Shown: positions 48,398-63,900, numbered from the stretch's first letter. The stretch: DNA of 64,000 nt from an uncultured Gemmatimonadales bacterium (GCA_964473155.1 CAYYNT010000009.1:17121-81120); one strand, 5' to 3'. The notes: generated by a model from the sequence alone, not told the origin. Made by a program: numbers and translations.

Positions 48398-48486
48398 ACA
48401 ACCCTCCAGGAAATATTCCGGTTCAAACGAGTTTCCCTCCGGCACGGAAGCAGGCGGGATAATATTTATCTGCCAGTCGGTTCAGT

Positions 48487-50406
48487 TCAGCGGCGCGGCC
48501 CCCAGACAGGAGTCTCGGCTCCGCGCTCCAGGGCGCCCAGGTCCGGAGCGCTTCCGGTGAAATCATCGTTCACGTTGGGCAGGACCACCCCGCGATCCAC
48601 CGCCGGGGCGCCCGCTCGCAACGAGAAATCATAATCCCGGCTGAAATACACGGCCATCGGCTTTTCCGGATCGGGCCGGGACACGTTCTCAAAGATGTCA
48701 TAATCCACTTCCATTCCATGGCTTTCCTGACCTGTGGCGGCGCGGAACTCCGCCAGCGTTGCAAAACGCTTGAACTCCTCCCGCCGCTCCAGCTCGTAGT
48801 CACGCAGAACTCCCGCGGCAGGAGCCTTCCAGAAAAACTGCGCCCCGCCCGCGCGGTTCGGCCTGTAACCGTTGTAATCCAGCGTGCTGTAGATGGTATT
48901 CGTGCAGAGACGGAACAACTCGCGGCCGGGCGCGTCCGTGCCAAGGAAAAGGTTGTTGCGGAAATGAGCGTTGCTGTAGCCCGCCGGGTTGCGGTTCTCG
49001 GCCACAATCGTATTGTGATACAGCAACAGGCCCGCGGGCTGGACCTTGAACTTGAAAGCCATGCCCCAGGGAACATTATAAAGGATATTGCGGATATAGT
49101 AGGCCGGGCCGCCGTAAACCGGCTGGGCGCTCAGGCCGCACTGGGCCGAGTTGAAGCAGCGGTTGCGCAGCACGCGTATATTGTGCACTCCGCCGTCCGC
49201 CTCGATAAAATCATCGGTCATCAGGTGGATGTCGTTGTTGTAGAAATCGATGGCCGTGTCGCGCAGCGACGGGTCAGGGTCCGGGCTGCCGTGGGTGCAG
49301 ACACAGATCGCGTCATGGAACCAGGCGATATGGTTGTGGCAGACCACGTGCCCCTGGCCATAGACTTTGACCGCGTAATAGCTCTTGAGCGGGCTTGCCC
49401 CGTAGGAGCCTGGATCGTACCAGCCGATCAGGCGGTTGCGGTCGTCCCGGCCGAGCATGACATTGTCCGAGATCAGGAAATCGCGCGATCCGGCAAACTG
49501 GGTCGTGACCGCTATCCCCACCTCCTCCATCCGGCAGTGCCGGACGGTCAGGCCGCTGCACCCGGCCACGTCCTTGAGGCCCGCGTAGAAAGCGATATCG
49601 CAGTTCACTATTGTCAGGTTTTCGAAGATATGGTAGTCCGCGGCCATGACATCGAACAGGCGGTAGCAGCCCGCGCCGTCGAAAATGACCTCACCGTCGC
49701 CCGCCGCGCGTATCACTATAGGCCGCTCGGGCGTGCCCTTGGCTGTCAGGACATACGCGCCGTGGAAATCCAGGCCCAGCGGATCGCTGTAGCTTAAGCG
49801 ATCGGCCCTGTAGCGCCCGGCATGCATCAGGATGACGTCGCCGGGGCGCACCTTGCGCTCGCTCACCACGGCCCAATCTCCGCCGCCGGCGCCCTGGTAG
49901 GCGGACATGAGTCCGGTGAACGACGGCTCCGTGCGCGGGCCTTCCCAGTCCGGGGGATAGACATGCAGCACTCGACCGCCCGCCGCGGCTTTCGGCTCAG
50001 CGCGGGTCCGGAGGCGCACGGTCTTTTCCGCCTCCCCTCGCACGCCGTCCGGGTCGGTCAGGCGCAGACGGCACTCATACTCTGCGCCCGGCTCCAGGTC
50101 GAACAGACTGCCCGCGAACATATCCGGGGCCGTGTAGTCGATAAAATCCTCTTCGGCGAACGTGCGCTCGTTGTCTATCCGCAACAGGGGCAATCCCTCG
50201 CGCCAGCCGTTCTCGCCAGCTTTGCGGTAATGAAGCGAAACCGCGCTGTTGCGGTTGTCATCCCCGGCGATAGCCCACTCGAAACCCAGGCAGATCAGTG
50301 TCGGACGCTCCAGCTTCAGCTCACCCGCGGTCACGCGGTCCTCAGCCGGAAGGATAACGCTTGATAGAAGAATGAGTATTGAAACGAGGGCCGGCGCTGA
50401 ATTCAT
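48487..50406 (-). CDS. Secreted right-handed parallel beta-helix repeat protein (pectate-lyase-fold; putative polysaccharide lyase/hydrolase)
   Basis: Signal peptide, then many short repeats with N/D/G/I/V periodicity (e.g. NLTIVNCDIAFYAG..., HNHIAWFHDAI..., YNNDIHLMTDDFIEADGG) typical of pectin-lyase-fold beta-helices. Confidence 0.6.
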   Translation of the reverse strand: MNSAPALVSILILLSSVILPAEDRVTAGELKLERPTLICLGFEWAIAGDDNRNSAVSLHYRKAGENGWREGLPLLRIDNERTFAEEDFIDYTAPDMFAGSLFDLEPGAEYECRLRLTDPDGVRGEAEKTVRLRTRAEPKAAAGGRVLHVYPPDWEGPRTEPSFTGLMSAYQGAGGGDWAVVSERKVRPGDVILMHAGRYRADRLSYSDPLGLDFHGAYVLTAKGTPERPIVIRAAGDGEVIFDGAGCYRLFDVMAADYHIFENLTIVNCDIAFYAGLKDVAGCSGLTVRHCRMEEVGIAVTTQFAGSRDFLISDNVMLGRDDRNRLIGWYDPGSYGASPLKSYYAVKVYGQGHVVCHNHIAWFHDAICVCTHGSPDPDPSLRDTAIDFYNNDIHLMTDDFIEADGGVHNIRVLRNRCFNSAQCGLSAQPVYGGPAYYIRNILYNVPWGMAFKFKVQPAGLLLYHNTIVAENRNPAGYSNAHFRNNLFLGTDAPGRELFRLCTNTIYSTLDYNGYRPNRAGGAQFFWKAPAAGVLRDYELERREEFKRFATLAEFRAATGQESHGMEVDYDIFENVSRPDPEKPMAVYFSRDYDFSLRAGAPAVDRGVVLPNVNDDFTGSAPDLGALERGAETPVWGPRR

Positions 50407-51025: not shown

Positions 51026-52057
51026 ATGCATAGAATAACGAGGATACTGCCGGCATTAGCCCTGGCCGGTCTCTGGGCCATGCCCTGCCTGGCCTGCGAT
51101 GTACCGGTGTTCCGTTATGCCCTGGAACGCTGGACCCCGGCGGTGTACGAGCTGAACGTTATCGCTCCTCAGGGCAATCCCGCGAACGATACTCCACCCG
51201 TCAACTCCCTGCAAAGCCTTCTGGACAGCGCAAACTGCGCTTTACATTACAGCGGCTCCGGCGCGTCCGTCAGCGGGGGCGTCATCCCGCGGATGGAACT
51301 CGCATATCGCGACTGGCAGGGGGAAAAAATCTTAATATGGTCCGGCCGGGCGTCGGCTGAAAATGTCGAAAAGCTTGTCGATTCTCCAGCCCGCAGGGAG
51401 ATAGCCGGGAAACTACTGGGCGGCGCGACAGCGGTCTGGGTGTTTCTCGAGTGCGAGGACAGGGCGAAAAACGAGGCCGCGCTGGGACGGCTGGAAACGG
51501 CCCTGGACCAGATCGAGCGGAGCCTGACTCTGCCGGAATCGGTGACACGCCTGCAAGAGTCCATGACAGGCAAGCTGCGGGTTGACTTCCCTGTCGTGAA
51601 AATCCAGGGTTCGAGCGAGGCGGAAAAAATCCTGGTCGACATGCTGATCCGCTCCGAGCCGGACCTGGAGTCCTACAGGACTGAGCCGATGGCATTTCCG
51701 GTATTCGGACGGGGGCGTGTGCTTTACGCTCTGGCGGGAGATGGCATCGACAGCGTGAATACCGCCGGGGCGTGCGTTTTCCTGGCCGGTCCATGCGCCT
51801 GCGAGATAAAAGAATCGAACCCGGGAATGGACCTGCTCATGCGGGCCGGATGGGCCTCGGGTATCGGGGAGAGCTGGGTCGACGCCTCGGAAAACGTGTC
51901 GTTGTCCAGCCTCGCCGCCCTGGCGGGAGGCAGGCCGGATGACAACTCCGGCGGGAAACTGTTTCATGGTGTCGTAATAACGCTGCTGACCGTGCTTATA
52001 CTCGTTGGAGCCGGGAGCGTAGTGCTCCTGAGAAAGATCAGGAGAAGGGACCGATGA
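51026..52057 (+). CDS. Exported protein of unknown function with signal peptide and C-terminal transmembrane anchor
   Basis: MHRITRILPALALAGLWAMPCLAC signal. A soluble ~280-aa region with several Cys follows. The C-terminus has a TM helix VVITLLTVLILVGAGSVVLL followed by RKIRRRDR. The stop overlaps the next start (ATGA). The track ORF begins further upstream at a TTG; I chose the first ATG before the signal peptide. Confidence 0.5.
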   Translation: MHRITRILPALALAGLWAMPCLACDVPVFRYALERWTPAVYELNVIAPQGNPANDTPPVNSLQSLLDSANCALHYSGSGASVSGGVIPRMELAYRDWQGEKILIWSGRASAENVEKLVDSPARREIAGKLLGGATAVWVFLECEDRAKNEAALGRLETALDQIERSLTLPESVTRLQESMTGKLRVDFPVVKIQGSSEAEKILVDMLIRSEPDLESYRTEPMAFPVFGRGRVLYALAGDGIDSVNTAGACVFLAGPCACEIKESNPGMDLLMRAGWASGIGESWVDASENVSLSSLAALAGGRPDDNSGGKLFHGVVITLLTVLILVGAGSVVLLRKIRRRDR

Positions 52058-53334
52058 ACCTGAGGCAGGTTGTGTTCCGGGAGATAATGCACCGCAAGAC
52101 GGGCTTTATCCTGGGGGCCTTATCCGTGGCAGCGGCGACCGGCGTTCTGGTCTGTGTCATGACCCTGCTCGAGGCCCATGCCGAGGCGTCCAGCCGGATG
52201 ATGGCGGAAAAGGAAGCCGCTACAGCCAGGGAAATGGCATTGATGCAGGACGACTACCGCAAGATAATGAAGACCCTGGGGTTCAACCTCCTTATACTCC
52301 CCGAAAGCCAGAGCCTGGAGCAGTACTACGCCACCGGGTATGTCACGGAAACGATGCCCGAGGACTACGCCGGGCGTCTTGCCGCGGCCGGGCTGCTGAC
52401 GGTGCGCCATGTCCTGCCCAGCGTGGAGCGCAGGATCGAGTGGCCCGAGATGGGCGGGTCCACGGTCATTCTCTCAGGAACAAAGGGTGAGATACTGTCA
52501 GCGGAAGGTTTCAACGGTGAGTCGATGCAGATGCCGGTGGCAGAGGGGGATCTTGTAGCCGGGTATATCGTGGCGAAAAATCTCGGTCTGAGTGTGGGTG
52601 AGACTGTGACGCTACGCGGCGAGAAGTTCCGGGTCAGTGAGATAAACACCGAGAAGGGAACGCGGGACGACATTACAGTCTGGATCGAACTGGGACGGGC
52701 GCAGAGGATGCTTGGCCTCGAGGGACGGATCAACGCCATCCTGGCCCTGAAATGCCTCTGCGAGGGCAACGAGTTGCCGAAGGTCCGCAAGGACGTGATC
52801 CGGATACTGCCGGGGACCCAGGTTATCGAGGTCGACTCCAAGGTCATCACCCGCGCCGAGGCCAGGGACAAGGCCGCGGCAGTGGCAAAACAGACGCTGG
52901 AGGAAGAGAGCGCCAGCCTGGCCCGTTTGCGTAAAAGTATCGAGGACCTTGCCGCCTGGCTCGTCCCTCTGTCGATTCTCGGCGCCGCAGTCTGGATAGG
53001 CCTTCTGGCCCTGGGCAATGTGCGGCAGAGACGGGCCGAGATCGGGATATTCCAGGCCCTCGGTCTTGATTCGGGGCGCATAATCGCTATTTTCCTGGCC
53101 CGGGCCGCTCTTATAGGCCTGACGGGCGCGGTGGCGGGCTACGCCCTGGGCATGGCCACGGCTGGAGTATACTCGGCAAAGTTCGAGGGTGGCCTTTCCG
53201 GTGCGCTGACTTTCAACGCCCTGACGTTTCTCGTTGTCATCCTTGCCGCCCCGGCGCTGGCCATAGTATCAAGCTGGCTGCCCGCGCTCGTTGCGGCGGG
53301 ACAGGACCCGGCTCTCGTACTTAGGGAGGATTGA
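52054..53334 (+). CDS. ABC transporter permease, FtsX/MacB/LolC-E type (N-terminal TM, large periplasmic domain, three C-terminal TM helices)
   Basis: The topology and the conserved C-terminal FtsX-domain pattern (...RRAEIGIFQALGLDSGRIIAIFLARAALIGLTGAVAGYALG...) fit the family. An AGGAGA RBS is present. Confidence 0.75.
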   Translation: MNLRQVVFREIMHRKTGFILGALSVAAATGVLVCVMTLLEAHAEASSRMMAEKEAATAREMALMQDDYRKIMKTLGFNLLILPESQSLEQYYATGYVTETMPEDYAGRLAAAGLLTVRHVLPSVERRIEWPEMGGSTVILSGTKGEILSAEGFNGESMQMPVAEGDLVAGYIVAKNLGLSVGETVTLRGEKFRVSEINTEKGTRDDITVWIELGRAQRMLGLEGRINAILALKCLCEGNELPKVRKDVIRILPGTQVIEVDSKVITRAEARDKAAAVAKQTLEEESASLARLRKSIEDLAAWLVPLSILGAAVWIGLLALGNVRQRRAEIGIFQALGLDSGRIIAIFLARAALIGLTGAVAGYALGMATAGVYSAKFEGGLSGALTFNALTFLVVILAAPALAIVSSWLPALVAAGQDPALVLRED

Positions 53335-53341
53335 GGCGCGG

Positions 53342-54007
53342 ATGTTGAACCTTGATTCGATAACGAGAGTCTACCGCCGTAAGAACGGGAATCCGGTCGT
53401 GGCGCTCGACAGCGTCTCGCTTTCGGTCCGGCCCGGCGAGTTCGTGGTCCTCCAGGGCCCCAGCGGAAGCGGCAAGACCACCCTGCTCCTGACAGCCGGG
53501 GGCCTTCTGCCCCCGGCCTCCGGCGCGGTAAAGCTGGAGGAGCGCGACATCTATACCCTGCCCGCGGGCGAACTCGCCAGGGTGCGGGCGAAAAAAATCG
53601 GGTTCGTTTTCCAGCAGTTCCATCTGATACCCTACCTGAATGTCCTCGAAAACGTGCTTGCGCCCTCGCTGGCCTGTCCGGACCCTGGTGCGCGGGAGCG
53701 CGCCTTTTCGCTCCTCGAAGAGCTGGGTCTCGACCGGAGGGCCGGCCACTTCCCCTCCGAGCTGAGCACCGGGGAGCGTCAGCGGACAGCCCTTGCAAGG
53801 GCGCTGCTCAACCAGCCGCCGCTCATACTGGCGGATGAACCCACCGGCAACCTGGACCGCGACAATTCACGCATAGTAACCGGTCACCTCTGCCGGTTCG
53901 TGTCCTCGGGCGGCGCGGTGCTGATGGTGACGCACGGGCCGGACAGCCTCTCCTTCGCTCACCGGCGGGTCGACATCATGGAGGGCAAGATTGTCTCCGC
54001 GGATTGA
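53342..54007 (+). CDS. ABC transporter ATP-binding protein (LolD/MacB-type)
   Basis: Walker A GPSGSGKTTL, signature LSTGERQRTALARAL, Walker B ILADEPTGNLD. A GGGAGGA RBS precedes the ATG at 53342. Confidence 0.8.
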   Translation: MLNLDSITRVYRRKNGNPVVALDSVSLSVRPGEFVVLQGPSGSGKTTLLLTAGGLLPPASGAVKLEERDIYTLPAGELARVRAKKIGFVFQQFHLIPYLNVLENVLAPSLACPDPGARERAFSLLEELGLDRRAGHFPSELSTGERQRTALARALLNQPPLILADEPTGNLDRDNSRIVTGHLCRFVSSGGAVLMVTHGPDSLSFAHRRVDIMEGKIVSAD

Positions 54008-54020
54008 AAATACCTTACTC

Positions 54021-57000
54021 ATGACGGCAGAAAAAATCGTGTCGAGACTCGCGCCGTTTATCGTCATGCTGAGCCTCGGACCGGCAAGCTCTCTTTTTCC
54101 ATCAGACTGGCCCATGTGGCGCTTCGGGCCTGAACGCGGGGCCTGCGCTCCGGACAGCCTGGCGACTGAACTGTCGCCCCTGTGGGCGGTGGATTACGGC
54201 AGGCGGGAGCCGGTCTGGGACGATCCGCTGAACCGTGACCTGATGCCCTACGACCGGGTGTTCGAGCCGGTGGTGGCCGATGGTAGGATGTTTGTCGGGT
54301 TCAACGATCGGGACAAGCTGGTGGCCCTCGACACGGATTCAGGCAAAGAACTCTGGTCGTTCTACGCCGAGGGACCGGTGCGGTTTCCGGCGGCCGCCTG
54401 GGGCGGCAACGTGTATTTCGTGTCGGATGACGGGTGCCTCTACTGCGTGCGCGCCGCAGACGGAGCGCTGGTCTGGAGGTTCCGCGGGGGGCCATCGCAG
54501 CGCAGGGTGCTCGGGAACAGACGCCTGATCTCCACCTGGCCGGCCCGCGGCGGACCGGTGATCCGTGATGGGCGGGTATATTTCACCGCCGGCATCTGGC
54601 CGTTCATGGGAGTCTTCATATACGCACTGGATGCCCGGAGCGGAAAGGTTGCCTGGGAGAACGACTGGACCGGCAGCCAGTTCATACTCCAGCCGCACAA
54701 CTCCCCCGCTTTCGCCGGGATTGCGCCTCAGGGCGCCCTGGTCGCGGCGGGCGACGGTATAATAGCGCCCGGTGGACGTTCTGTCCCGGCCCTGTTCGCG
54801 CGTGAAGACGGCAGCCAGCGATACTTCCATCTCGCCGCACAGAACAAGACCGGAGGCTCTTTTGCCTGCGCCGCCAGCCACGTCTTTTTCAACCATTACC
54901 GCGACCAGGTCTGCTCGATGTACGACCTCGCGACCGGTAAGGCCCTTATCGAGCGGATAGGCAGTTCCCCGGTGATATCCGGGGACCTTATCCTGTTCGG
55001 TGGAAAGACTGTCCGGGCTTTCGATTCTCGTGAGCTGCAGGAAGTCAGCCGCTGGTTCCTGACTGGAAATTTCCTGGAGCGCTGGCTCGCAGGCCTCGAT
55101 GCGGACAAAATCAAACCCGCATTCCTCGGTTCGGCCGTGAAATGGTGGGTCCGCAGGAAATCCCGTCTGTGGCGCGGCGCAGTTCTCTGGGAAGCAAAGG
55201 TAGATGCCGGCCGGGACCTCATACGCGCCGGTGATATCCTCTATGCCGCATCCGGTGACGGCATCACGGCGCTGAGGCTGTCATCCGCACGCAAATCTCC
55301 GCCCGCCGTGCTCTGGCATAAGAGGGTCGAGGGCGGCGTCGAAAGGTTACTTGCCGCCGGAGGGAAGCTGTTCGCGGTCACCCTGGACGGGCGGATCATG
55401 GCTTTCGGCCCGGAGAGTGACGGGGATAAAGCCCCTCCCGCGCGTCCCGTGGAAGCGGCCGAAACCGGACCCGGATCGCGCGAGTCCGCCGGGATCATCA
55501 GCCGCACCGGGGCGCGAGAGGGCTACGGTCTGGTGTTCGGACTAAAGGACTATGATTTGCTGCTTGGCCTGGCCCGCGGTTCCAACCTGCAAATTGTCGG
55601 CATTGACCCGGACAGCGCACGGGTGGACTCGATCCGGCGGAGACTGGACCATGAAGGCCTGTACGGGAAGCGGATTGCGGTGGTACGGGGGACCCAGGGC
55701 GGTTTCGACTGCCCGCCATACCTGGCCAGCCTGATCGTTATTAACGGCCCGCTCGAACCGGGTTTCAGCCGGCTCCTCGAATCTCTTCGCCCATACGGAG
55801 GAAAAGCCTGGCTGAGAAACCCGGGGACAGGCCGCCGCGTAATTCAGGATTCTGTCAACGCCGCGGGCGTCGAGGCGCTGCGCCTTGAAAAAGGAACGGC
55901 GCCGGTTGTTGTCGTCCGGAACGGCCCGCTGCCTGGAGCCGGGAGCTGGACCCATCAGTATGGCGATATCGCCAACACGGTCAAATCGAACGACACGCGC
56001 GTGAAGCTGCCGCTTGGCCTGCTCTGGTTCGGCGGAAGCTCCAACCTGGATGTCCTTCCCCGCCACGCGCACGGTCCGCCGGAGCAGGTTGCCGGGGGCC
56101 GGCTTTTTATCGAGGGCATTGACTGCATGAGCGCGCGGGATGTCTACACCGGGCGCGTGCTCTGGAAAACCAGGATCGAGGGCCTGGACAACTTCAATGT
56201 CTATTACGACGAGACTTACAAGGACGCCCCGACCAGCACGGAATACAACCAGATTCATATCCCGGGGGCGAATGTCCGGGGCGCTAATTTCGTGGCCACC
56301 ACGGACCGCCTCTATATTGCCGCCGGACCGGTCTGCCGGGTGCTCGACACGACGACTGGAGAGGTGACCGGGACTATCGGACTGCCGGAAGGTTCGGGCG
56401 GCTGGGGCTACATCGGGGTCTGTGGCGATTACCTTATCGCCGGGGGCGGCCTGGTCGATTTCTCGTCCCGGATGCCGGGAGGCTCTGAAAAGCCAAGCGA
56501 GAGAGACAAGCCTTTCCTTGATTTCAACCGCTCGGCCAGTTCCAGCCTGACAGTCATGAACCGCCATACCGGACGGCCGCTGTGGACCCGCGAGGCGCGT
56601 TACGGCTTCATCCACAATTCGATCGTGGTGCACGACGGGAGACTTTACTGCCTGGACAAGCTGCCGCCTTACATCGAGGGCCTGATCGCCCGTCGCGGCG
56701 GCAGGCCGGTGGAGGGTTCGGGCATGCTCTGCCTGGACCTGACATCCGGGAACATGATCTGGAACAAACAGGAGGGAGTTTTCGGCGCCTGGTTGAGCTA
56801 TTCCGCGGAACACGATATCCTTCTGCAGGCCACCCGTCCCTCCAGCGACATGGTGCGGGGCGAGGACGGCAGGCGCATGGCCGCGTATGGCGGCAGGGAC
56901 GGCCGGCTGCTGTGGGACAGGAAGATCGAATACGGGTCTGTGCCGATTCTCCGTCGTGACAGAATTATCACAGCCGGAAAGATGATCGACCTTCTGAGCG

Positions 57001-57860
57001 GTGAGGAACTGGTCCGGAAACACCCGCTGACCGGCGAGGAGGTACCGTTTTCCTGGAAGCGCAATTATGGCTGCAACTACCCGATCGCCTGCGAAAACCT
57101 TCTGACCTTCCGTTCCGCCGCGGCCGGTTATTTCGACCTGACCAACCTGGGCGGGACAGGCAACCTGGGAGGATTCAAATCCGGCTGCACCTCGAACCTG
57201 GTGGCGGCGGACGGGGTGCTGAACGCCCCGGACTACACCCGGACCTGCGCGTGCAGCTACCAGAACCAGACCTCCCTGGCCCTGCTCTACGACAGGGATG
57301 TCGAGGTCTGGACATTCAACGACCTGGATTCGGTCTCTGCGCCGGTCCGCAGGGTGGGAATCAACCTGGGCGCTCCGGGGGACCGGGTTTCCGATGAGGG
57401 AACCCTCTGGCTGGACTACCCCAGCCGGGGCGGACCCTCTCCGGACATACCGGTGTCGGTCGAGGGAGACAGTCTGCGCTGGTTCTGCCACCATTCGTCG
57501 CGCATACGGGAGGGAGAAATGCGCTGGGTGGCGGCCTCCGGCGTGGAGGGCGCCAGAAAGCTGACTCTGAATCTGGGGCACGGGGATGCCGCCCCCCGGA
57601 CTTTCAAGGTGCGCCTGTATTTTTCGGATTGTGACGCTCACTCAGGCAGCCATGTATTCAGCCTCGGCATCCAGGGGAAAAGAGTTGTTGAAAGGCTCGA
57701 TCTCGTTGCTGAATGCCGCCGGGGAGAGACATATCTGATCAGGGAATTCGACGGTGTAGAGGTGCGGGACACCCTTACCGTTGAGCTGATCCCGGAGCCG
57801 GATATAAAAAACAACCGGACCGTGATCTGCGGGATAGAAGCGATCGAGCAGGGCTGGTGA
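54021..57860 (+). CDS. 1,279-aa secreted multidomain protein: BamB/PQQ-like beta-propeller repeats flanking a degenerate class-I methyltransferase-fold domain, with a C-terminal malectin-like carbohydrate-binding domain
   Basis: Signal-like N-terminus MTAEKIVSRLAPFIVMLSLGPASS. Repeated ..DG.VY....DG.L.A.DA.TG...W.. propeller blades occur at the N-terminus and again after residue ~700. The central GYGLVFGLKDYDLLLGLARGSNLQIVGIDPD..RVDSIRRRL...RIAVVRG...SLIVINGP matches the MTase beta1-alpha-beta2 order but lacks the GxGxG loop. The C-terminal FKVRLYFSDCD...HVFSLGIQGKRVVERLDLV...TYLIREFDGVEV.DTLTVELI matches a malectin-like domain. Confidence 0.6.
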   Translation: MTAEKIVSRLAPFIVMLSLGPASSLFPSDWPMWRFGPERGACAPDSLATELSPLWAVDYGRREPVWDDPLNRDLMPYDRVFEPVVADGRMFVGFNDRDKLVALDTDSGKELWSFYAEGPVRFPAAAWGGNVYFVSDDGCLYCVRAADGALVWRFRGGPSQRRVLGNRRLISTWPARGGPVIRDGRVYFTAGIWPFMGVFIYALDARSGKVAWENDWTGSQFILQPHNSPAFAGIAPQGALVAAGDGIIAPGGRSVPALFAREDGSQRYFHLAAQNKTGGSFACAASHVFFNHYRDQVCSMYDLATGKALIERIGSSPVISGDLILFGGKTVRAFDSRELQEVSRWFLTGNFLERWLAGLDADKIKPAFLGSAVKWWVRRKSRLWRGAVLWEAKVDAGRDLIRAGDILYAASGDGITALRLSSARKSPPAVLWHKRVEGGVERLLAAGGKLFAVTLDGRIMAFGPESDGDKAPPARPVEAAETGPGSRESAGIISRTGAREGYGLVFGLKDYDLLLGLARGSNLQIVGIDPDSARVDSIRRRLDHEGLYGKRIAVVRGTQGGFDCPPYLASLIVINGPLEPGFSRLLESLRPYGGKAWLRNPGTGRRVIQDSVNAAGVEALRLEKGTAPVVVVRNGPLPGAGSWTHQYGDIANTVKSNDTRVKLPLGLLWFGGSSNLDVLPRHAHGPPEQVAGGRLFIEGIDCMSARDVYTGRVLWKTRIEGLDNFNVYYDETYKDAPTSTEYNQIHIPGANVRGANFVATTDRLYIAAGPVCRVLDTTTGEVTGTIGLPEGSGGWGYIGVCGDYLIAGGGLVDFSSRMPGGSEKPSERDKPFLDFNRSASSSLTVMNRHTGRPLWTREARYGFIHNSIVVHDGRLYCLDKLPPYIEGLIARRGGRPVEGSGMLCLDLTSGNMIWNKQEGVFGAWLSYSAEHDILLQATRPSSDMVRGEDGRRMAAYGGRDGRLLWDRKIEYGSVPILRRDRIITAGKMIDLLSGEELVRKHPLTGEEVPFSWKRNYGCNYPIACENLLTFRSAAAGYFDLTNLGGTGNLGGFKSGCTSNLVAADGVLNAPDYTRTCACSYQNQTSLALLYDRDVEVWTFNDLDSVSAPVRRVGINLGAPGDRVSDEGTLWLDYPSRGGPSPDIPVSVEGDSLRWFCHHSSRIREGEMRWVAASGVEGARKLTLNLGHGDAAPRTFKVRLYFSDCDAHSGSHVFSLGIQGKRVVERLDLVAECRRGETYLIREFDGVEVRDTLTVELIPEPDIKNNRTVICGIEAIEQGW

Positions 57861-57926: not shown

Positions 57927-60644
57927 ATGCCTGAGTTTTTCTACGAGAAGTATCGAACGGCGATTAAGGGAGTTCTGAGAACCGGCATGTCACAATCTCT
58001 GATTTGTTTTGTATTTTTTCAATTCTCGCTCTGCCTCTCTTTCTCCGTCCAGCCACTTGCCGCGCAGAAAACCAACGATCCGGAACAGGAGGCCAGGGAT
58101 TTTATCAACGTGGCCGAAACCCGGCTTGCACCGGTCTACCCGGCGCTGGCCCTGCATATAGTCGAAAGGTTCGGCCTGGCGGGTGAGAAAGGTCTCGGGA
58201 TCGACCTGGGAAGCGGTCCGGGGCACCTGATTATCGAACTGGCGCGGCGCACGGAGAGGATGGAGTGGATAAACGCGGACATCAATCCCCATTACTTCAC
58301 ATATTTCCTGACAAAGGCCCGGCAGGCCGGGCTGGCCGGGCGGGTGCAAGCCGTGGAAGCCGATGCGCAGGCCCTTCCCTTTGATGACGATGTGGCCGAT
58401 ATCGTTGTCTCCCGCGGTTCGTTTCAGTTCTGGGAAGATAAGGAAAAAGCCTTCTCCGAAATCTATCGTGTCCTCAAACCCGGCGGAAAAGCGTTTATCG
58501 GGCGCGGCCTGCCGGAGAATCTGCCTCCGGAGACTGCAAGCAAGGTGCGTGAACGGGCAGGCAACGGTCCGGAATACGACGTGGCGGAAACTGCAATCCT
58601 GCTGGAAAAAATTATGCGCTCCCTGAAAATAGCCGATTACCGGGTGGAAAGACCCCGGCCGGCGGGCTCCGAGGGTGTAAGCTACGGCGTGTGGATCGAG
58701 TTTTCCAAACCTGCCGCGAAAACACAGGCAAGCGAGAAAAGAACCTCCTACTACGACCTGGATACGCTGGTGGTCATCGGCTCCGTCCTCCGCGACCCGG
58801 TATCCGAGCCGCGAACTGAGCCGTTGAGCCTCGAACCCGCCGCCACCGTGGTCAACCAGGCGGAAATCGCCCGTTCCGGGGCCAAGACCCTGATCGAGGC
58901 CATGGAGTACGTTCCCGGCGCCTGGATCGAGAACCGGGGACGGAAAGTGAAACAGTTCTTTTCGATCCGCGGCCAGAAATATCCCTACCCGGACTATGCC
59001 ATTGACGGCGCCTGGCAGCGTGAGTTTCTGGAGCTGCCTTATTTCTTTCCCGCTGAAAATGTCGAGCGCATCGAAATCATGCGCTCGAGCGCGGCGCTCT
59101 TTACCGGGCTTTCAGGCTTGACCGGCGTGATCAATATCGTCCCGCGCGAATACCGCCAACGGGAAACCGCTTTCCAGGGTGAATACGGGTCTTTCGGAAC
59201 CTACAGGCTCAATCTCAGCCACGGCGGCGTGGTGAAAAACCTGTCCTACGCCCTGGACCTGGGGTTCCCTGGCACGGATGGGCCGAAAGGCAAGTACGCG
59301 GCCGAGTCGTTCACCAATTTCAGAGGCAGCCTCTACTGGCGTCCGAATGAAAAATGGGAAGTCAACGCCCATCTGATGCATCTCAACGGCAGCCGTCAGA
59401 TGGCCCGGGCCGTGGCGCCCGCGACTTTGGACCTGCGCACCGCCTCCGAGAAATTCGATCCTTTCCGAGCCACCCTGGCCACGGTGAAAGCCCTTTACAA
59501 ACCCAACGCGAGAGTTTCCTCGGAGCTAATCGCCAGCTATTCAGTCCGTAACAACATGTATATATCGCAAACCCCGTCCTCGACCACCTCCAACCGTGAG
59601 TACGATTATGAGTGGGGGGCCAACTTCACCCAGTCGGTGACGCCTTTTCGAAGCAATATCCTTCGTTTCGGGAGCCTCTACAACCATTGGGCGGCCCCCA
59701 ACGGAAAGCGTTTCTACGTGGGCAAGCGCTGTGACCTGGAAACCTTCTCCTGGGTGGCCGGGGACGAGCAGAGCATCGGGCCGCTGACCCTGAATCTCGG
59801 TCTGCGCTGGGCTCGCACTTATATCAACAACTACGGCGCATTCAATATCAACGAAAGCCCCAAGGGCCTGCAGAACGTGACCCCGATCAGAAACGAGTGG
59901 GAACCGGCTCAGATAACCACCGCCCTGGGAGCCTCATGGGCATTCTCACCCTCGGTCTCGGCTCATTTCAACCTGGCCGCGGGCAAGATAAAGCCCGCTC
60001 CGGGCAACTTGAACACCGATATGCAGGAACCAGAAAAAGAGAAAAGGCTGAAGATCGACCTCGGTCTCATAACCAGGCGGGAAAACATAGGGCAGCTTTC
60101 ACTGGTCTGGTTTATCACCCGTCAGAACGATGCCCTGGTGCTGAGCGGCAAGACTGTAAACCTCGATGGCAAAGTGCTGGAGACCTTTCTGAACCGCGAC
60201 CAGCGCCAGACCGGTGTCGAGATCGACGCCCGGAGCGTCCCTCTGCGGGGCTGCCTCCAGCTTTTCGCCAATTTCGTGGCCATCAGCCCACGGGCAGAGG
60301 TGGAGGGGCGGATGGTCCGTGACCGGGAAACTCCCAGGATCATTTCATCCGGCGGACTTTTCATCAACAGGGCCGGGTATGACCTGAACCTGTTTCTCAA
60401 AACCGTTTCTTCTTACGAGAGCACCCGTTTCGTGGCAGGCACTGCCGGTCAGCCGCTTCTGCCGCAGCCCCTTGGCGCGTACCAGACGCTTAACCTGACT
60501 CTCGGGCGCAATTTCGGCTCCAGGCCGTTCAACAGGATTTACCTGGAAGTGACCAATATGGCCGATGACAGGTATTCCACGGTGGCGGGCTATCCGGATT
60601 ACGGCAGGAGGCTGACAGCAGGCTGGCGCATCGTTTATAAATGA
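57927..60644 (+). CDS. Fusion protein: N-terminal class-I SAM-dependent methyltransferase domain (UbiE/Methyltransf_11-like) joined to a TonB-dependent-receptor-like plug plus beta-barrel
   Basis: The ATG at 57927 has an AAGAGGA RBS. A hydrophobic segment LICFVFFQFSLCLSFSVQPLAAQ follows. Canonical MTase motifs are present: I GIDLGSGPGHL, post-I INADIN, II FDDDVADIVVSRGSFQFW, III LKPGGKAFI. Next comes a TonB-box/plug-like region (DTLVVIGS ... VPGAWIENRG..V.QFFSIRGQ ... ERIEIMRSSAALFTGLSGLTGVINIV) and a ~550-aa barrel-like region. The last residues are ...RIVYK, not the usual terminal F/W. A single uninterrupted ORF. Confidence 0.65.
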   Translation: MPEFFYEKYRTAIKGVLRTGMSQSLICFVFFQFSLCLSFSVQPLAAQKTNDPEQEARDFINVAETRLAPVYPALALHIVERFGLAGEKGLGIDLGSGPGHLIIELARRTERMEWINADINPHYFTYFLTKARQAGLAGRVQAVEADAQALPFDDDVADIVVSRGSFQFWEDKEKAFSEIYRVLKPGGKAFIGRGLPENLPPETASKVRERAGNGPEYDVAETAILLEKIMRSLKIADYRVERPRPAGSEGVSYGVWIEFSKPAAKTQASEKRTSYYDLDTLVVIGSVLRDPVSEPRTEPLSLEPAATVVNQAEIARSGAKTLIEAMEYVPGAWIENRGRKVKQFFSIRGQKYPYPDYAIDGAWQREFLELPYFFPAENVERIEIMRSSAALFTGLSGLTGVINIVPREYRQRETAFQGEYGSFGTYRLNLSHGGVVKNLSYALDLGFPGTDGPKGKYAAESFTNFRGSLYWRPNEKWEVNAHLMHLNGSRQMARAVAPATLDLRTASEKFDPFRATLATVKALYKPNARVSSELIASYSVRNNMYISQTPSSTTSNREYDYEWGANFTQSVTPFRSNILRFGSLYNHWAAPNGKRFYVGKRCDLETFSWVAGDEQSIGPLTLNLGLRWARTYINNYGAFNINESPKGLQNVTPIRNEWEPAQITTALGASWAFSPSVSAHFNLAAGKIKPAPGNLNTDMQEPEKEKRLKIDLGLITRRENIGQLSLVWFITRQNDALVLSGKTVNLDGKVLETFLNRDQRQTGVEIDARSVPLRGCLQLFANFVAISPRAEVEGRMVRDRETPRIISSGGLFINRAGYDLNLFLKTVSSYESTRFVAGTAGQPLLPQPLGAYQTLNLTLGRNFGSRPFNRIYLEVTNMADDRYSTVAGYPDYGRRLTAGWRIVYK

Positions 60645-60995
60645 AAGCGCTGCATACAGGAAAGTAAAAAATTATTCTTTTTCCCCTTGTTCCATCAGAG
60701 CCTCACAGAATTGGTTTTCAGCCTAAAACAGCCTTAGAAGTACGTTTACGAGCGACTACCATCTATCTGGAACCTATTTCTATATTTTGCATAGAGTTTA
60801 ATCGCCCGGAAATTAACTTTCGCATTGCATGATCTCCTGATTATATTTTTCTGAGGCAATGCGCAATACGATCCCCTGAATTATCCATCCGTCTTTCTGA
60901 AATCATATAGGAGTTCACAACCATTTACCCTGAAAAACACATCTCGCATTTTTGATCCTCTCTCAACAGTCACCCCAGTCCGGAAGAGGCCCTAC

Positions 60996-63900
60996 ATGTC
61001 CAGTCGACGTCTGATTGTCCTGTCTCTTGTTTTCACTCTCCTTGCGGCTGTCAGCCTGGCCGCCCAGGAGCGGCTGAATGTTTTCCTCTCCTTCGAGGAC
61101 AAGAACGAAATCGCCACGCTCAGGGTCTCGCCTGGGGTGCAGATTTCCCAGTCCACCCATTTTCCCACCTGGAAAGAGAACTCCCTGGAGGCTGTGTTCC
61201 CCGCCGGCGGCGGGCAGATCGCTCTGGCCCGTTTCCCTGAAGACTGGCGACTGAGTGGGGCGCTGCTCGTGTTCGCATGGTGCGAGCAGCCCTCCGAGCT
61301 GACTATAGCTCTTGAGGACTCAACAGGCGCCAGTTTCCGGAAAAGCTTCGGTCTTCGAACCGGGGCCAACCATATCCAGTTCGACCTGAGCAAGACCCGC
61401 GGCCTGAACCTCGGGAAGATGAAAGCCGTGCGGCTGGAATCCCCGGCCATGGGAAAAATGTACTTGGACTATATCGCCCTTGACCGTTACAACCAGTTAC
61501 TGGATGAGCGTGGACGGTTCGATTTCCGATACAAGATGGATGTGGAGACGCCGCATTTCAAATGGGGCAATCCCCTTCCCGGGGGTCCGATCAATGTCTA
61601 CGCCCTGAGCGGCATCATCGACGGCCGCGGGATTATCGAACTGACCCAGCGTCTTGATATCAATTTCACGACCACCAGCATGGGCGTACGGGATGCGATG
61701 AACCTGTACGGGTTCGGCGAATTTTACGAGGAGCGCGGTGGCGGCACTTCCACTTCCATGACCTATGTGGCCGATGACATCCTCAATGGGCCGGACTATG
61801 ATGTAATCCTCTGGCCGGGGTTGCGCCCCTGGGAAAGCTATCCGCAGTCTGTCCGCGACCGGATACGTCATCTGGTGGTGGACGAGGGCAAGGGCCTGGT
61901 GCTGTTCTCGCCGACCTCTGAAGCCGCGGACGGGGCCGGGCTGTGGGAACTCTCACCGCTGACCGGAATCGGCGAACACGTGAATATCTGGCCTGAGGAC
62001 AAAGTGACTCTCGACTCGTCCCAGGTGGATCAGAGCGCCTGGACAGTTACACAGGACCATTTTATCACCCGCGGGCTGGCTCTGGACGCTTTTCCGCAGG
62101 GCAAGCTGACCGTGATCACCTCCAAGCCCAATGGTGAAGTGCTGGTCGCCACCAAGCGCGGCGCCCCGGTCCTGGCTGTACGTCAGGCGGGAAAGGGACG
62201 CGTGGTGGCTTTCGGCTACAGCCAGCGCGGAATGATCCCCGAGGTGCCGCGAGTATGGGACACCGGGCTGCAGTACAACTACTGGGAGTATATGTGGTCC
62301 ATGATCGCACGGGCCACGCTCTGGGCCGCGGGACGGGAATCATCTTCAGGCCTGGCATCCATCGAGCGCAAGGAAAACAAAGTGACAGTCCCGCTTCTTC
62401 ATGCCGCCGGGCCGCAGGAGGCTCTTTGCGGACGGTTGACAGATGACCACGGCCAGATGGTCACACAGTACGACATCCCGCTCAAGCCTGGGGCGAAAAG
62501 CGTAGTGTTGGACATTCCCGCCTCCATTCCCGGAGGACGCAGTTTCCTCGATCTCAAGTTGACAAAGGACGGAAACTCCCTGGACTGGGCCACCCTGATC
62601 GTGGACCAGCGACAGCAGGTTAAAATCGAAAGCCTTACCCTCGACACCGGCCGCGTGCAGCTTGGCGGGAGCTTGACCGCCACGGTCAAGCTCTCCGCAC
62701 CGTCAAAAAGCGCCTGCACCCTTGTGGCTGGTTTGTACGACAACTACGGCCGCCTGCTCGGTGAGAGAAAAGAACCGCTTAACTTCTCCGGCGCACTGGA
62801 GAAGAAATTCGAGTTCAGCACCGCCGGAGCGCTCAGCCACCTGGCGCGGGTCGAGTGCCGCCTGGAGGGGGCGCAGGCAGTCCAGGACCGCGCCGAGGCC
62901 GAGGTATTCGTGCTGCAGAAACGCCTCTGGGACGATTTCGACATCGTTATGTACCTTTTCGGCCCCAGCCCCATGCCCGGCATCTGGACCGCGATAGACA
63001 GCCAGATGCAACGCATGCGGGTGACAACGCTTTCCTCGTACCCGGTCAGCCTCTGCAAGCACGCCAACTACATGGTGCAGGCCCAGACCAGGGTGAGCGG
63101 ACAGGAATCTCCGGATGATGGGCCGGACCGCGATTACTATGACAACATGAAAAAGAAATATCTCGCCACCGGCGACAAAATGGGCCTGGTGCGTAAATAT
63201 TGCCTGAACGACCCGGCATACCGTGAACTGATTCACAAGCAGTTGATTGAACTGGCCACGCCCTGGGTTCCGTTCTCGCCGCTGTCGTATTACGTGCTGG
63301 AGGAACCCTCGTTCACCTGCTACGGCGATGCGGTCGATATCTGTTTCAGCGAGCACACGCTAAGCGCCATGCGCGACTGGCTCAAGACCCGTTACGCCTC
63401 TCTCGATGCACTCAACAGGCAGTGGGGCACGGTGTTCGGCAGTTGGGACAAGGTGATCCCGGACGATGCCAAGGAAGCCCAGGCGCGCGGAAACTATTCC
63501 TCCTGGGCGGACCACCGTTCTTTCATGGAGCTGACCTATGCCAACAGCTACAAGATGCTGCTCGACGAATTGCGCCAGCTCGATCCCAACGCAAGGATGC
63601 TCAACTCCGGCACGCAGACATCAGGTTCGCACAACGGCTGCGACTACAGCCAGCTCAACCAGTACACCCTGCACCTGAACGCTTACGAATACGAGGTGCA
63701 CCGCAGTATGAACCAGGCGGTGAAGATTTCAGGGGGCGCGGGCTACGGGGTGATGGGCAAGCACGTACTGCGCAATTTTTACCAGAACCTGTTCAAGGGG
63801 GCCAACGGCGGGCTTTACGTATTCTGGCAGTACTGCACCGTGGACCCCGATCTTACGCTTAATCAGAGCGCCCTTGACATGCTCCAGGGGTTCGATGAAC

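Follow-up and report, generated by a model that had tools for sequence, protein, structure and literature searches.

The whole stretch of DNA analyzed here, 64,000 nt from an uncultured Gemmatimonadales bacterium and hereafter called the window, carries five genes on its plus strand that run from a membrane-anchored protein with a thioredoxin fold through an FtsX permease, an ABC ATPase and a 1289-aa propeller protein to a gene in which a methyltransferase (MTase) is joined to a TonB-dependent transporter (TBDT). This MTase-TBDT gene is the last gene of a conserved, previously undescribed five-gene cassette, whose members in the window are the following.

51026..52057, plus strand: 343-aa periplasmic protein with thioredoxin-fold domain(s), a signal peptide and a C-terminal TM anchor
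52054..53334, plus strand: FtsX/MacB-type permease of 426 aa (Pfam FtsX, E 7e-15; MacB_PCD, E 4e-6)
53291..54007 (start approximate), plus strand: ABC ATPase of the LolD/FtsE/MacB type (Pfam ABC_tran, E 6e-31)
53991..57860, plus strand: exported double beta-propeller protein of 1289 aa with PQQ_2/BamB-like repeats (Pfam PQQ_2, E 7e-33)
57924 (TTG) or 57927 (ATG) to 60644, plus strand: MTase-TBDT gene, 906 or 905 aa

The family of the 343-aa protein has no Pfam or NCBIfam model. We assigned it a thioredoxin fold, for which the Foldseek result alone was not significant, and the protein holds a conserved cysteine, C24, and a C257-x-C259 motif. That it could be a second LolE-like permease was rejected, as it shows no similarity to the FtsX protein and has, apart from its signal peptide, just one TM helix, at the C-terminus; a kinship between this family and the N-terminal CxC region of P0404 was likewise discarded, given an hhalign probability of 0.4%. 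The permease, with its four TM helices and a periplasmic domain, makes up together with the LolD/FtsE/MacB-like ATPase an ABC transporter of the MacB/FtsX type (type VII). Because the best NCBIfam matches of the ATPase (LolD, FtsE and MacB) are all below their cut-offs, it is to be seen as a member of the MacB/FtsX family and not as the orthologue of any named system. Transporters of this type are not known to carry solutes across the inner membrane. The propeller protein begins with a signal peptide and a conserved mature N-terminus (DWPMWR), and holds a central Rossmann/MTase-like domain with a degenerate glycine loop, GLKDYD. Its orthologues match Malectin in Pfam; the window copy has no such match at E<=0.01, and a malectin-like C-terminus is probably present in it, judging by eye and from the orthologues. 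The possibility that the MTase embedded in the giant propeller proteins is the same module as the one fused to the transporter, only swapped, was rejected because the HMM of the fused domain yields only 14-37 bits on the embedded domains vs 300+ on stand-alone orthologues; these propeller-embedded domains belong to a different subfamily.

The MTase-TBDT gene and its product

The following parts can be distinguished in the fused protein.

57927..58064, plus strand: Sec-type signal peptide, aa 1-46 (from its hydrophobic segment, the signal peptides of homologues and dN/dS)
58074..58712, plus strand: class-I SAM-dependent MTase domain, aa ~50-262 (from Pfam, AlphaFold2, conservation and the match to 3DLC)
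58713..58823, plus strand: flexible linker, aa 263-299 (AlphaFold2 pLDDT <50 for aa 265-285)
58761-58781, plus strand: TonB-box-like strand DTLVVIG, aa 279-285, within the disordered stretch
58824..59156, plus strand: plug, aa 300-410 (Pfam PF07715 at aa 305-401, E 1.5e-13, 51.6 bits vs a cut-off of 23.9)
59157..60644, plus strand: 22-strand beta-barrel, aa 411-905 and stop, ending in ...RIVYK (from AlphaFold2 and Foldseek)

A preliminary description of this DNA had placed the MTase, plug and barrel in one ORF, and had pointed to ~58.7 kb as the site where a frameshift or a chimeric join should be looked for. A single reading frame does span the Pfam matches to the MTase and the plug, the GC content is unbroken across the junction, and an ungapped ORF of the same 905 aa is found in independently assembled orthologues that are 93% and 85% identical. 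The same architecture, with both parts encoded by one ORF, is found in about 75 protein clusters at 44-93% identity, both halves are under purifying selection, and the fused proteins are devoid of the transporter's own signal peptide, the linker leading directly into the TonB box. The MTase-TBDT ORF is one real, intact and conserved gene, and not an assembly artefact. Separate and slightly overlapping genes for the two parts do occur in at least one related locus (L154), which could be taken to favor a frameshift, mis-join or read-through of adjacent genes into a false single ORF; this separation, however, is natural variation that shows where the fusion came from and not evidence of error in the window, and such an explanation, already effectively refuted, retains a negligible probability.

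The hydrophobic, signal-like segment reported at the N-terminus proved to be a Sec-type signal peptide with a long n-region, the h-region SLICFVFFQFSLCLSF and, by eye, a likely cleavage site after LAA46. A signal peptide directly precedes the MTase in nearly all full-length homologues, and the dN/dS of this segment (0.49) is relaxed, as expected for a sequence of its kind. Beta-barrel proteins must use Sec, and Tat export of a cofactor-loaded domain was rejected since the signal peptides are, by eye, of the Sec or lipoprotein type. Because the TonB box comes after the MTase, which thus occupies the site of the known N-terminal extensions, the MTase must be periplasmic, and this rules out the earlier suggestion that it could be the cytoplasmic part of an atypical membrane protein; the fusion of the same MTase subfamily to periplasmic ModA-like solute-binding proteins was also counted in favor of this placement. 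The evidence strongly indicates that the protein is exported through Sec, that its barrel resides in the outer membrane, and that the MTase hangs in the periplasm on a flexible linker of ~20-40 residues just upstream of the TonB box, in the place that STN or CarboxypepD_reg domains take in other TBDTs. No match to the models for these domains or for AMIN (PF07660 for STN, PF13620/PF13715 for CarboxypepD_reg/NTE, PF11741 for AMIN) was found before the plug of the window protein.

Within the MTase, Pfam recognizes Methyltransf_11 at aa 93-191 (E 4e-20), with Methyltransf_25, Methyltransf_31 and Ubie also matching. AlphaFold2 models aa 50-262 with pLDDT >90 as a seven-strand Rossmann-type fold, in which the strands (88-94, 111-118, 140-144, 157-163, 183-194, 238-241 and 254-260) alternate with helices, and 27 MTase matches to the domain were obtained from the PDB. 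The four class-I motifs previously read as intact are all present, namely GIDLGSGPG (aa 91-99), INADIN (aa 115-120), the acidic D146 and LKPGGKAFI (aa 183-191), and the SAM-contacting residues are well conserved: in a set of 67 sequences with a mean column identity of 48%, D93, G95, G97, G99 and D118 never vary, and conservation of D146 exceeds 90%. Also invariant in the homologue alignment are P69, Y71, W114, S162, R163, S165, W169 and R193, and motif I, the acidic residue that closes beta2 and that of motif III are likewise conserved in 26 stand-alone relatives. Judged on these residues, the domain looks competent to bind SAM. Its nearest solved relative, 3DLC (mmp1179, a putative MTase of Methanococcus maripaludis; E 2.5e-30), was crystallized with SAM bound (PMC5289526) and shares with it the LAPVY cap motif, motif I, VSRGS...W and LKPGG. 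3DLC differs in having Gly where the window family has R193, and both 3DLC and the CouO/Coq5 structural group are cytoplasmic, stand-alone proteins without signal peptides. The S162-R163-G-S165 block and W169, all four named residues of which are invariant, follow beta4 and would, by position, fall where the related CouO and Coq5 place a catalytic Arg/His. The named equivalogs remained far below their NCBIfam cut-offs, as seen for BioC (50.5 vs 184.95), UbiE/MenG (48.5 vs 378), ArsM (PRK11873; 38.9 vs 263) and CpaM (27.8 vs 180).

The MTase has a mean pairwise identity of 56%, vs 48% for the barrel, and its dN/dS, 0.17, equals that of the barrel; the plug is the best conserved part of the protein (67% identity, dN/dS 0.05). 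In the linker, DTLVVIG resembles DTLVVTA, the TonB box of BtuB. A Y-x-[ML] motif followed by [DE][TP][LIV]x[VI] is kept in most fused homologues and is absent from an acidobacterial subclade, so that coupling to TonB may not be universal. The model of the whole protein (mean pLDDT 85.1) places the plug inside the barrel region, aligned with the plugs of BtuB and FecA, and a manual count gives 22 barrel strands between aa 413 and 904. Foldseek returned BtuB (1nqg, E 2.8e-27, TM 0.81) as the top match for plug and barrel, along with FoxA, YncD/PqqU and FecA (E ~3e-27) and many solved TBDTs at E ~1e-27, with TM scores of 0.81-0.83 normalised to BtuB, all of which bears out the plugged 22-strand barrel. 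The Pfam barrel model PF00593 has no match in the window protein at E<=0.01, and is on record for many homologues. The YK ending is also as previously described, and within this subfamily it is normal: the ...VYK terminus has its aromatic residue at -2, and not at the very end as in a BAM beta-signal, followed by a basic one, and this is a family trait. F is the last residue in 33 of the 67 homologues, and an aromatic residue followed by one basic residue (FK, YK, FR, FH) closes most of the others.

Distribution of the cassette and origin of the fusion

The fusion is carried by ~25 of the best 80 species-level loci, these 80 coming from a set of 242 barrel-subfamily relatives in the representative genomes of GTDB, and the carriers belong to Glassbacteria/Gemmatimonadota, Latescibacterota and Acidobacteriota; all the sequences compared come from uncultured organisms. 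Every fused locus of 19 kb or more (11/11) holds the full cassette, propeller protein included, as do 24/35 of the unfused ones; its gene order differs between lineages, and its neighborhoods are rich in glycoside hydrolases, polysaccharide-degrading genes usually adjoining it. The MTase itself is a member of a family of Sec-exported, SAM-type MTases (99 clusters at 50% identity, E<=1e-30) that are mostly stand-alone periplasmic proteins or lipoproteins: among 120 stand-alone relatives, 103 start with a Sec signal peptide, which in many cases includes a lipobox. Their genes stand in the order unk-ftsX-abc-propeller-MTase. Some family members are fused to a ModA-like solute-binding protein, a fusion again trailed by FtsX and ABC genes. 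FtsX/MacB-type ABC genes are found with the exported MTase in all three of its architectures, whether it is fused to a TBDT, fused to a solute-binding protein or encoded on its own. A further arrangement, in P0017, joins the MTase to CarboxypepD_reg and plug, and CarboxypepD_reg is carried by other members of the barrel subfamily as well.

Comparison of these loci shows that the MTase is normally encoded by a separate gene, in the same operon as the thioredoxin-fold anchored protein, FtsX, the ABC ATPase and the giant propeller, with or without a TBDT. In L154, a gene for an MTase lipoprotein adjoins a separate TBDT gene, and because the two are neighbors there, the window gene appears to have arisen from two operon partners that became joined; in the window lineage, the MTase gene fused to the TBDT gene downstream of it. 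A neighbor-joining tree of plug and barrel gave no clean single origin of the fusion, with a few unfused proteins, some of them perhaps fragments, nesting among the fused ones. We also considered complementarity, with each unfused transporter accompanied by a stand-alone orthologous MTase nearby, and rejected it, since no such gene was found within 10 kb of the unfused transporters. Most barrel-subfamily members (from Bacteroidota, KSB1 and others) have, in fact, the cassette and no orthologous MTase within 10 kb, and the MTase is not obligatory for the cassette/transporter system.

Known systems and possible roles of the fused domain

A survey of 34,893 TBDTs reported only CarboxypepD_reg, STN and AMIN as N-terminal architectures (PMC6434023), in agreement with the earlier statement that no MTase-type extension was known, and our search of the literature on MTase-TBDT fusions, periplasmic methyltransferases and combinations of PQQ, malectin, MTase and TonB returned nothing relevant. 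Transducers such as FecA and FpvA share with the window protein a plugged 22-strand barrel, an extra globular periplasmic domain before the TonB box and a flexible linker; their extra domain, however, is an STN of ~80 residues, whereas here it is a class-I MTase of ~210 residues, and no sigma/anti-sigma pair is conserved beside the window gene. Trans-envelope signaling of the STN kind through an anti-sigma factor was rejected, because an anti-sigma-like propeller protein with zf-HC2 was found only in L154, zf-HC2 being absent from the ~1040-aa propeller proteins. The SusC/Oar-type TBDTs bear their CarboxypepD_reg (NTE/DUF4480) in the same position, and Oar shows that such transporters can take unusual roles (PMC6434023); the window protein differs from them in lacking CarboxypepD_reg and a SusD partner, in its small, BtuB-like barrel, and in an extension that has the fold of an enzyme and whose cofactor site is intact. 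In spite of being the best structural match to plug and barrel and of similar size, BtuB, the cobalamin transporter of E. coli, has only ~15% sequence identity to the window protein and no N-terminal extension. Cobalamin uptake was rejected, as the likeness is limited to the fold, the NCBIfam TonB-B12 model scores 29.9 vs a cut-off of 599.7, and no cobalamin riboswitch is found anywhere in the 64,000-nt window. A parallel in concept is offered by Pseudomonas, where the transporter PfeA pairs with a periplasmic esterase, PfeE, which modifies the cargo right after import. PfeE, however, is a separate, cofactor-free hydrolase, whereas the enzyme-like domain described here is covalently fused and would need SAM.

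The best overall explanation, to which we give a probability of about 0.5, is that the protein is an exported, SAM-binding MTase carried by a TBDT, born from the fusion of two operon partners, that methylates or marks the cargo or a partner. TonB would open the plug and let the cargo emerge beside the tethered MTase, which might then bind SAM and methylate this cargo; the methyl acceptor might also be a partner in the periplasm, for example the propeller protein. Methylation could trap or mark the cargo for hand-over to the propeller or to the FtsX-ABC module. The invariant pocket formed by Ser-Arg-Gly-Ser...Trp and Arg193, together with the ModA-like fusions elsewhere in the family, hints at a small anionic solute as cargo. 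An MTase in the periplasm is odd, as already pointed out in the preliminary description, because we know of no route that brings SAM there, and the oddity stands, as unbiased clustering of the neighboring genes yielded no transporter other than the FtsX/MacB type. If the MTase is catalytic, a route that supplies SAM to the periplasm must exist.

It is possible, if on the unlikely side, that no methyl transfer takes place at all and that the MTase fold serves as a periplasmic module for ligand binding or docking. As such, it might capture adenosyl- or SAM-like cargo leaving the barrel, in the manner of a tethered periplasmic binding protein, or serve as the site at which the transporter docks on the propeller protein or the periplasmic domain of FtsX, much as STN and NTE mediate protein contacts. 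Such a role sidesteps the lack of periplasmic SAM and agrees with the location of the domain, exactly where the protein-interaction extensions (STN, CarboxypepD_reg) sit, with the binding context suggested by the fusion of the same subfamily to a solute-binding protein, and with a cassette that has no conventional periplasmic binding protein; an invariant SAM pocket, moreover, is equally expected if the domain only binds an adenosyl ligand. Pseudo-enzymes, however, usually lose the glycine loop. The Rossmann-like domain of the propeller lost it in these same loci, so that such loss is possible, and its retention in the fused MTase, where motif I and D118 are kept in 67/67 sequences, implies selection. 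The post-beta4 SRGS/W block and Arg193 are also retained at the usual acceptor site, and free SAM-like cargo in sediments and soils is implausible, with no importer for it present.

A more specific proposal, that true periplasmic SAM methylation is coupled to outer-membrane transport and that the FtsX/MacB-type ABC transporter supplies the SAM or drives an MTase/propeller complex, we regard as rather doubtful. By analogy with Oar, the transporter and the FtsX/ABC motor could instead move the giant propeller or another periplasmic product to the surface, with the MTase modifying the outgoing protein or product, for instance by lysine or carboxyl methylation; this we hold to be quite improbable. 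MacB-type ABC systems do expel periplasmic substrates, and the signal peptide of the propeller and its probable malectin-like, carbohydrate-binding end would suit a surface location. There is also a precedent for a TBDT required for protein secretion in Oar of Myxococcus (PMC6434023). The barrel, however, is BtuB-sized (TM 0.81-0.83) with short loops, unlike the large barrels of the Oar type, and the passage of a folded 1289-aa double propeller through 22 strands is hard to picture; the SAM problem persists, and we found no direct evidence for export.

Whatever the role of the domain, an intact, cofactor-binding enzyme domain as the N-terminal extension of a TBDT is a new architecture, as the extensions known so far are few, small and non-enzymatic, and, as it suggests, a step of chemical modification can be built directly into transport across the outer membrane. 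The sizeable and so far unrecognized family of Sec-exported MTases to which it belongs calls into question the working assumption that SAM chemistry takes place in the cytoplasm only. A non-catalytic MTase would be a clear example of how an enzyme fold can be taken over for the role of a receptor in the periplasm. If, on the other hand, methylation does occur in the periplasm, this would be the first extracytoplasmic SAM-methylation pathway, implying a new route of SAM export and making the cassette an envelope machine of a new type. Our analysis also defines a widespread, uncharacterized five-gene envelope cassette in abundant, uncultured phyla of sediments and soils.

One reading frame for a methyltransferase and a transporter

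The gene at 57927-60644 is a single unbroken reading frame on the plus strand, running from 57924 (TTG) or 57927 (ATG) to 60644 and encoding 906 or 905 residues, in which Pfam recovers a class-I SAM-dependent methyltransferase (MTase) domain and a TonB-dependent-receptor plug, also when each half is scanned separately. The MTase motifs named in the preliminary description are in place, namely GIDLGSGPG (residues 91-99), INADIN (115-120), D146 and LKPGGKAFI (183-191). The AlphaFold2 model (67 homologues as input; mean pLDDT 85) folds the C-terminal part into the plugged 22-strand barrel that had been anticipated, and by Foldseek plug and barrel match BtuB, FoxA, YncD/PqqU and FecA (E about 3e-27, TM 0.81-0.83, normalised to BtuB).

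Domains of the protein (residues)
50-262: seven-strand Rossmann-type domain (AlphaFold2, pLDDT >90)
93-191: MTase domain, Methyltransf_11 (Pfam, E 4e-20; also Methyltransf_25, Methyltransf_31 and Ubie)
265-285: disordered linker (AlphaFold2)
305-401: TonB-dependent-receptor plug, in the frame of the MTase (Pfam, E 1.5e-13)
413-904: barrel of 22 strands by our count, preceded by the plug (AlphaFold2)

The observation of an MTase joined to a TonB-dependent transporter (TBDT) is confirmed, and its interpretation as a real TBDT with an MTase as N-terminal extension is supported by conservation across homologues. Among 5.8 billion proteins searched, about 75 clusters share the MTase and plug architecture (full-length identity 44-93%); their sources are Glassbacteria, Latescibacteria, Acidobacteria/Bryobacteraceae and unclassified metagenome-assembled genomes (MAGs). 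The orthologues at 93% and 85% identity stem from independent assemblies, and each has exactly 905 residues and aligns with zero gaps. GC content shows no break at the MTase/transporter junction, dN/dS against the 85% orthologue is 0.17 for MTase and barrel alike (plug 0.05, signal peptide 0.49), and across the family the mean pairwise identity amounts to 56% in the MTase, 48% in the barrel and 29% in the linker. The fusion is real, and the risk that the fused frame is an artefact is negligible. Among the species-representative genomes scanned, the barrel subfamily has 242 relatives, every one from a MAG; of the best 80, about 25 carry the fusion, and the nearest (85% identity) is labelled Gemmatimonadales.

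Downstream of the gene, at 60645-61500, GC falls from about 0.58 to 0.45, and this segment holds neither an ORF with a family match nor a convincing terminator. A second, ordinary TBDT of 676 residues (16253-18283, minus strand; Plug and TonB_dep_Rec_b-barrel), which has no N-terminal extension, adjoins a GFO/IDH/MocA oxidoreductase.

Placement and conservation of the methyltransferase domain

In nearly all full-length homologues a Sec signal peptide lies directly N-terminal to the MTase domain, and most keep, between MTase and plug, a linker strand Y-x-[ML] followed by [DE]-[TP]-[LIV]-x-[VI]. Here this strand is DTLVVIG (residues 279-285), inside the disordered part of the model, and it resembles the TonB box of BtuB. 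The gene is real and conserved, and its MTase fold is carried out of the cytoplasm and tethered ahead of the TonB box, in the position held by the known N-terminal extensions of TBDTs. Because of this position the domain must be periplasmic, and the earlier idea that it might be cytoplasmic, as part of an atypical membrane protein, falls away. The ...YK ending, which had also been thought atypical, is present but not anomalous, as the final residue is F in 33 of 67 proteins and most others close with an aromatic residue followed by K, R or H.

A subclade of fused transporters from Acidobacteria/Bryobacteraceae (P0039, P0045, P0046, P0048, P0051, P0053, P0054, P0058-P0068, P0070 and P0074) has a much shorter linker and wholly lacks the TonB-box-like strand, as read from the homologue alignment A1 at the columns of residues 263-290; because of this absence, one may ask whether these proteins could be TonB-independent.

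The SAM-contact residues are under strong selection: in motif I, D93, G95, G97 and G99 do not vary, nor does D118 at the end of beta2, and D146 of motif III is conserved in more than 90%. P69, Y71, W114, S162-R163-G-S165, W169, R181 and G192-R193-G194 are invariant as well. Among solved structures the closest relative is 3DLC (mmp1179, a putative MTase of Methanococcus maripaludis; E 2.5e-30), whose crystal contains SAM (PMC5289526) and which served as reference SAM complex elsewhere (PMC3662625). Its structural neighbours CouO and Coq5 use a catalytic Arg/His pair or Arg, and by its position just past beta4 the invariant R163 may be equivalent to these residues. Scores against the curated equivalogs BioC, UbiE, ArsM and CpaM were all far under the cut-offs, so the domain can be assigned to no known specificity.

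By structure the protein is both a TBDT and a class-I SAM MTase, and it belongs to no named MTase equivalog and to no described class of transporter N-terminal extension. Among 34,893 TBDTs in a survey that required a PF00593 match, CarboxypepD_reg, STN and AMIN were the only N-terminal architectures (PMC6434023); this match is often missing in the present subfamily. Names in public databases are generic ("methyltransferase domain-containing protein", "TonB-dependent receptor plug domain-containing protein"), and in our literature search we found neither the fusion, nor a family of exported SAM MTases, nor the cassette treated below described anywhere.

An operon cassette and a family of exported methyltransferases

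Five genes, all in one direction and nearly abutting, form a row that ends with the transporter gene; a terminator-like hairpin lies immediately upstream of the first.

Genes of the cassette
51026-52057, plus: exported 343-aa protein with C-terminal TM anchor
52054-53334, plus: FtsX/MacB-type permease
53291-54007, plus: LolD/FtsE/MacB-like ATPase
53991-57860, plus: 1289-aa exported double beta-propeller protein, PQQ_2 repeats
57927-60644, plus: MTase-transporter

The four partners accompany the fused transporter in all lineages examined, in some with shuffled order, and all 11 fused loci that span at least 19 kb contain the full cassette. The MTase regularly shares an operon with the FtsX/ABC pair, the propeller protein and the transporter subfamily. 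The cassette also occurs with barrel-subfamily members that have no MTase or have CarboxypepD_reg instead (24 of 35 loci, in Bacteroidota, KSB1, Calditrichia and others). Because MTase-less transporters keep it and no stand-alone orthologous MTase was found within 10 kb of them, the core system is transporter plus cassette, and the MTase a lineage-specific addition. Neighbouring genes often encode glycoside hydrolases (GH2, GH42, GH92, GH106, GH127-like), sulfatases and lyases. Two large ORFs of 767 and 639 residues (46142-48445 and 48487-50406, minus) lie immediately upstream of the cassette on the other strand, with practically no family assignment beyond a weak GH123_N hint; the latter is conserved at L001, the locus of the 85% orthologue.

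All giant propeller proteins have a signal peptide, a conserved DWPMWR start and a central Rossmann/MTase-like domain, and many a malectin-like C-terminus. Cassette-type copies have a degenerate glycine loop in this domain. In the protein at 53991-57860, where the domain lies around residues 510-680, the loop reads GLKDYD, and the domain is for this reason likely a pseudo-MTase. GxGxG is retained in a paralogous class, and two such paralogues (L008 12514-15693, L009 5196-9833) keep LDLGCGDG and are exported too, and therefore make a second exported MTase-like family. The propeller-embedded domain and the fused MTase are no more than distant relatives (14-37 bits against >300).

With the MTase domain alone as query we obtained 1194 matches, the best 120 of which are stand-alone proteins of about 245-260 residues (identity 54-65%). 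A signal peptide, often with a lipobox, is present in 103 of these 120, and the other 17 look like truncated start calls. A profile built from these proteins recovered 99 clusters with E<=1e-30, at the 50% identity level, from 1.84 billion representatives. In P0362 and P0382 a lipoprotein signal is followed by a ModA-like solute-binding domain (SBP_bac_11; TIGR01256 at 42.9 bits, under its cut-off) and an MTase of the same subfamily; solute-binding proteins being periplasmic by nature, the fusion is a third, independent argument that the family works outside the cytoplasm. FtsX and ABC genes also follow this fusion. At L172 (241-5390, the P0362 context) the order is MTase (226 aa), ModA-like fusion, FtsX permease, ABC ATPase and radical-SAM protein, an unusual case of a solute-binding domain adjoining a MacB-type rather than an importer-type ABC system.

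Metagenomic stand-alone loci of at least 9 kb contain giant propeller genes in 15 of 33 cases and the anchored protein with FtsX in 11 of 33. Since several share the order of the window (anchored protein, ftsX, abc, propeller, MTase), and since at L154 an MTase lipoprotein gene is immediately followed by a transporter gene that is separate from it and encodes a signal peptide and TonB box of its own, the window gene is best read as a fusion of two adjacent operon partners. Directly upstream of that pair, in the only case seen, a 550-aa protein (L154 8111-9763, plus) combines a zf-HC2 anti-sigma-type zinc finger, a TM segment and a PQQ-like propeller. The commonest extra neighbour in Planctomycetes-type stand-alone loci is a pseudopilin-like protein (about 259 aa) with a prepilin N-terminal methylation motif and an H-X9-DG-type C-terminus, directly downstream of the MTase in 33 loci among L092-L171 (for example L116 1379-2155, plus), which are probably of the PVC superphylum. 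A triple architecture of signal peptide, MTase, CarboxypepD_reg, TonB box, plug and barrel occurs in P0017 (990 aa; L029 4321-7251, L069 5410-8340), and the cassette is absent within the flanks at hand of these two loci.

Possible roles of the tethered domain

In the reading that we favour, at a probability of roughly 0.5, cargo leaving the barrel would meet the tethered, SAM-loaded domain, which would methylate that cargo, or a periplasmic partner, as it emerges at the barrel, and so trap or mark it for the propeller/ABC module. A small anionic acceptor is weakly suggested by the invariant Ser/Arg pocket and by the ModA-like binding protein that is fused to the MTase elsewhere, and the genomic neighbourhood points to glycan use.

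The main objection to methylation is that we know of no source of periplasmic SAM. This problem would disappear if the MTase domain were a non-catalytic binding or docking module, an explanation that is possible, if doubtful, as the catalytic-site features are fully kept while the sister Rossmann-like domain of the same operon is visibly degenerate. Only one energy-coupled component of the inner membrane accompanies the MTase, the FtsX/MacB-type ABC system, and this class is not known to carry solutes across that membrane. That methylation with SAM truly takes place in the periplasm, supplied by way of the ABC system, is in our estimate unlikely. By analogy, an Oar-like role in export with protein methylation might be envisaged (the precedent is in PMC6434023), and we rate it as improbable.

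What is new is a TBDT with an enzyme-fold N-terminal extension, within a widespread and uncharacterised envelope cassette, and periplasmic SAM-dependent methylation with an ABC-linked supply, if true, would be of high interest.
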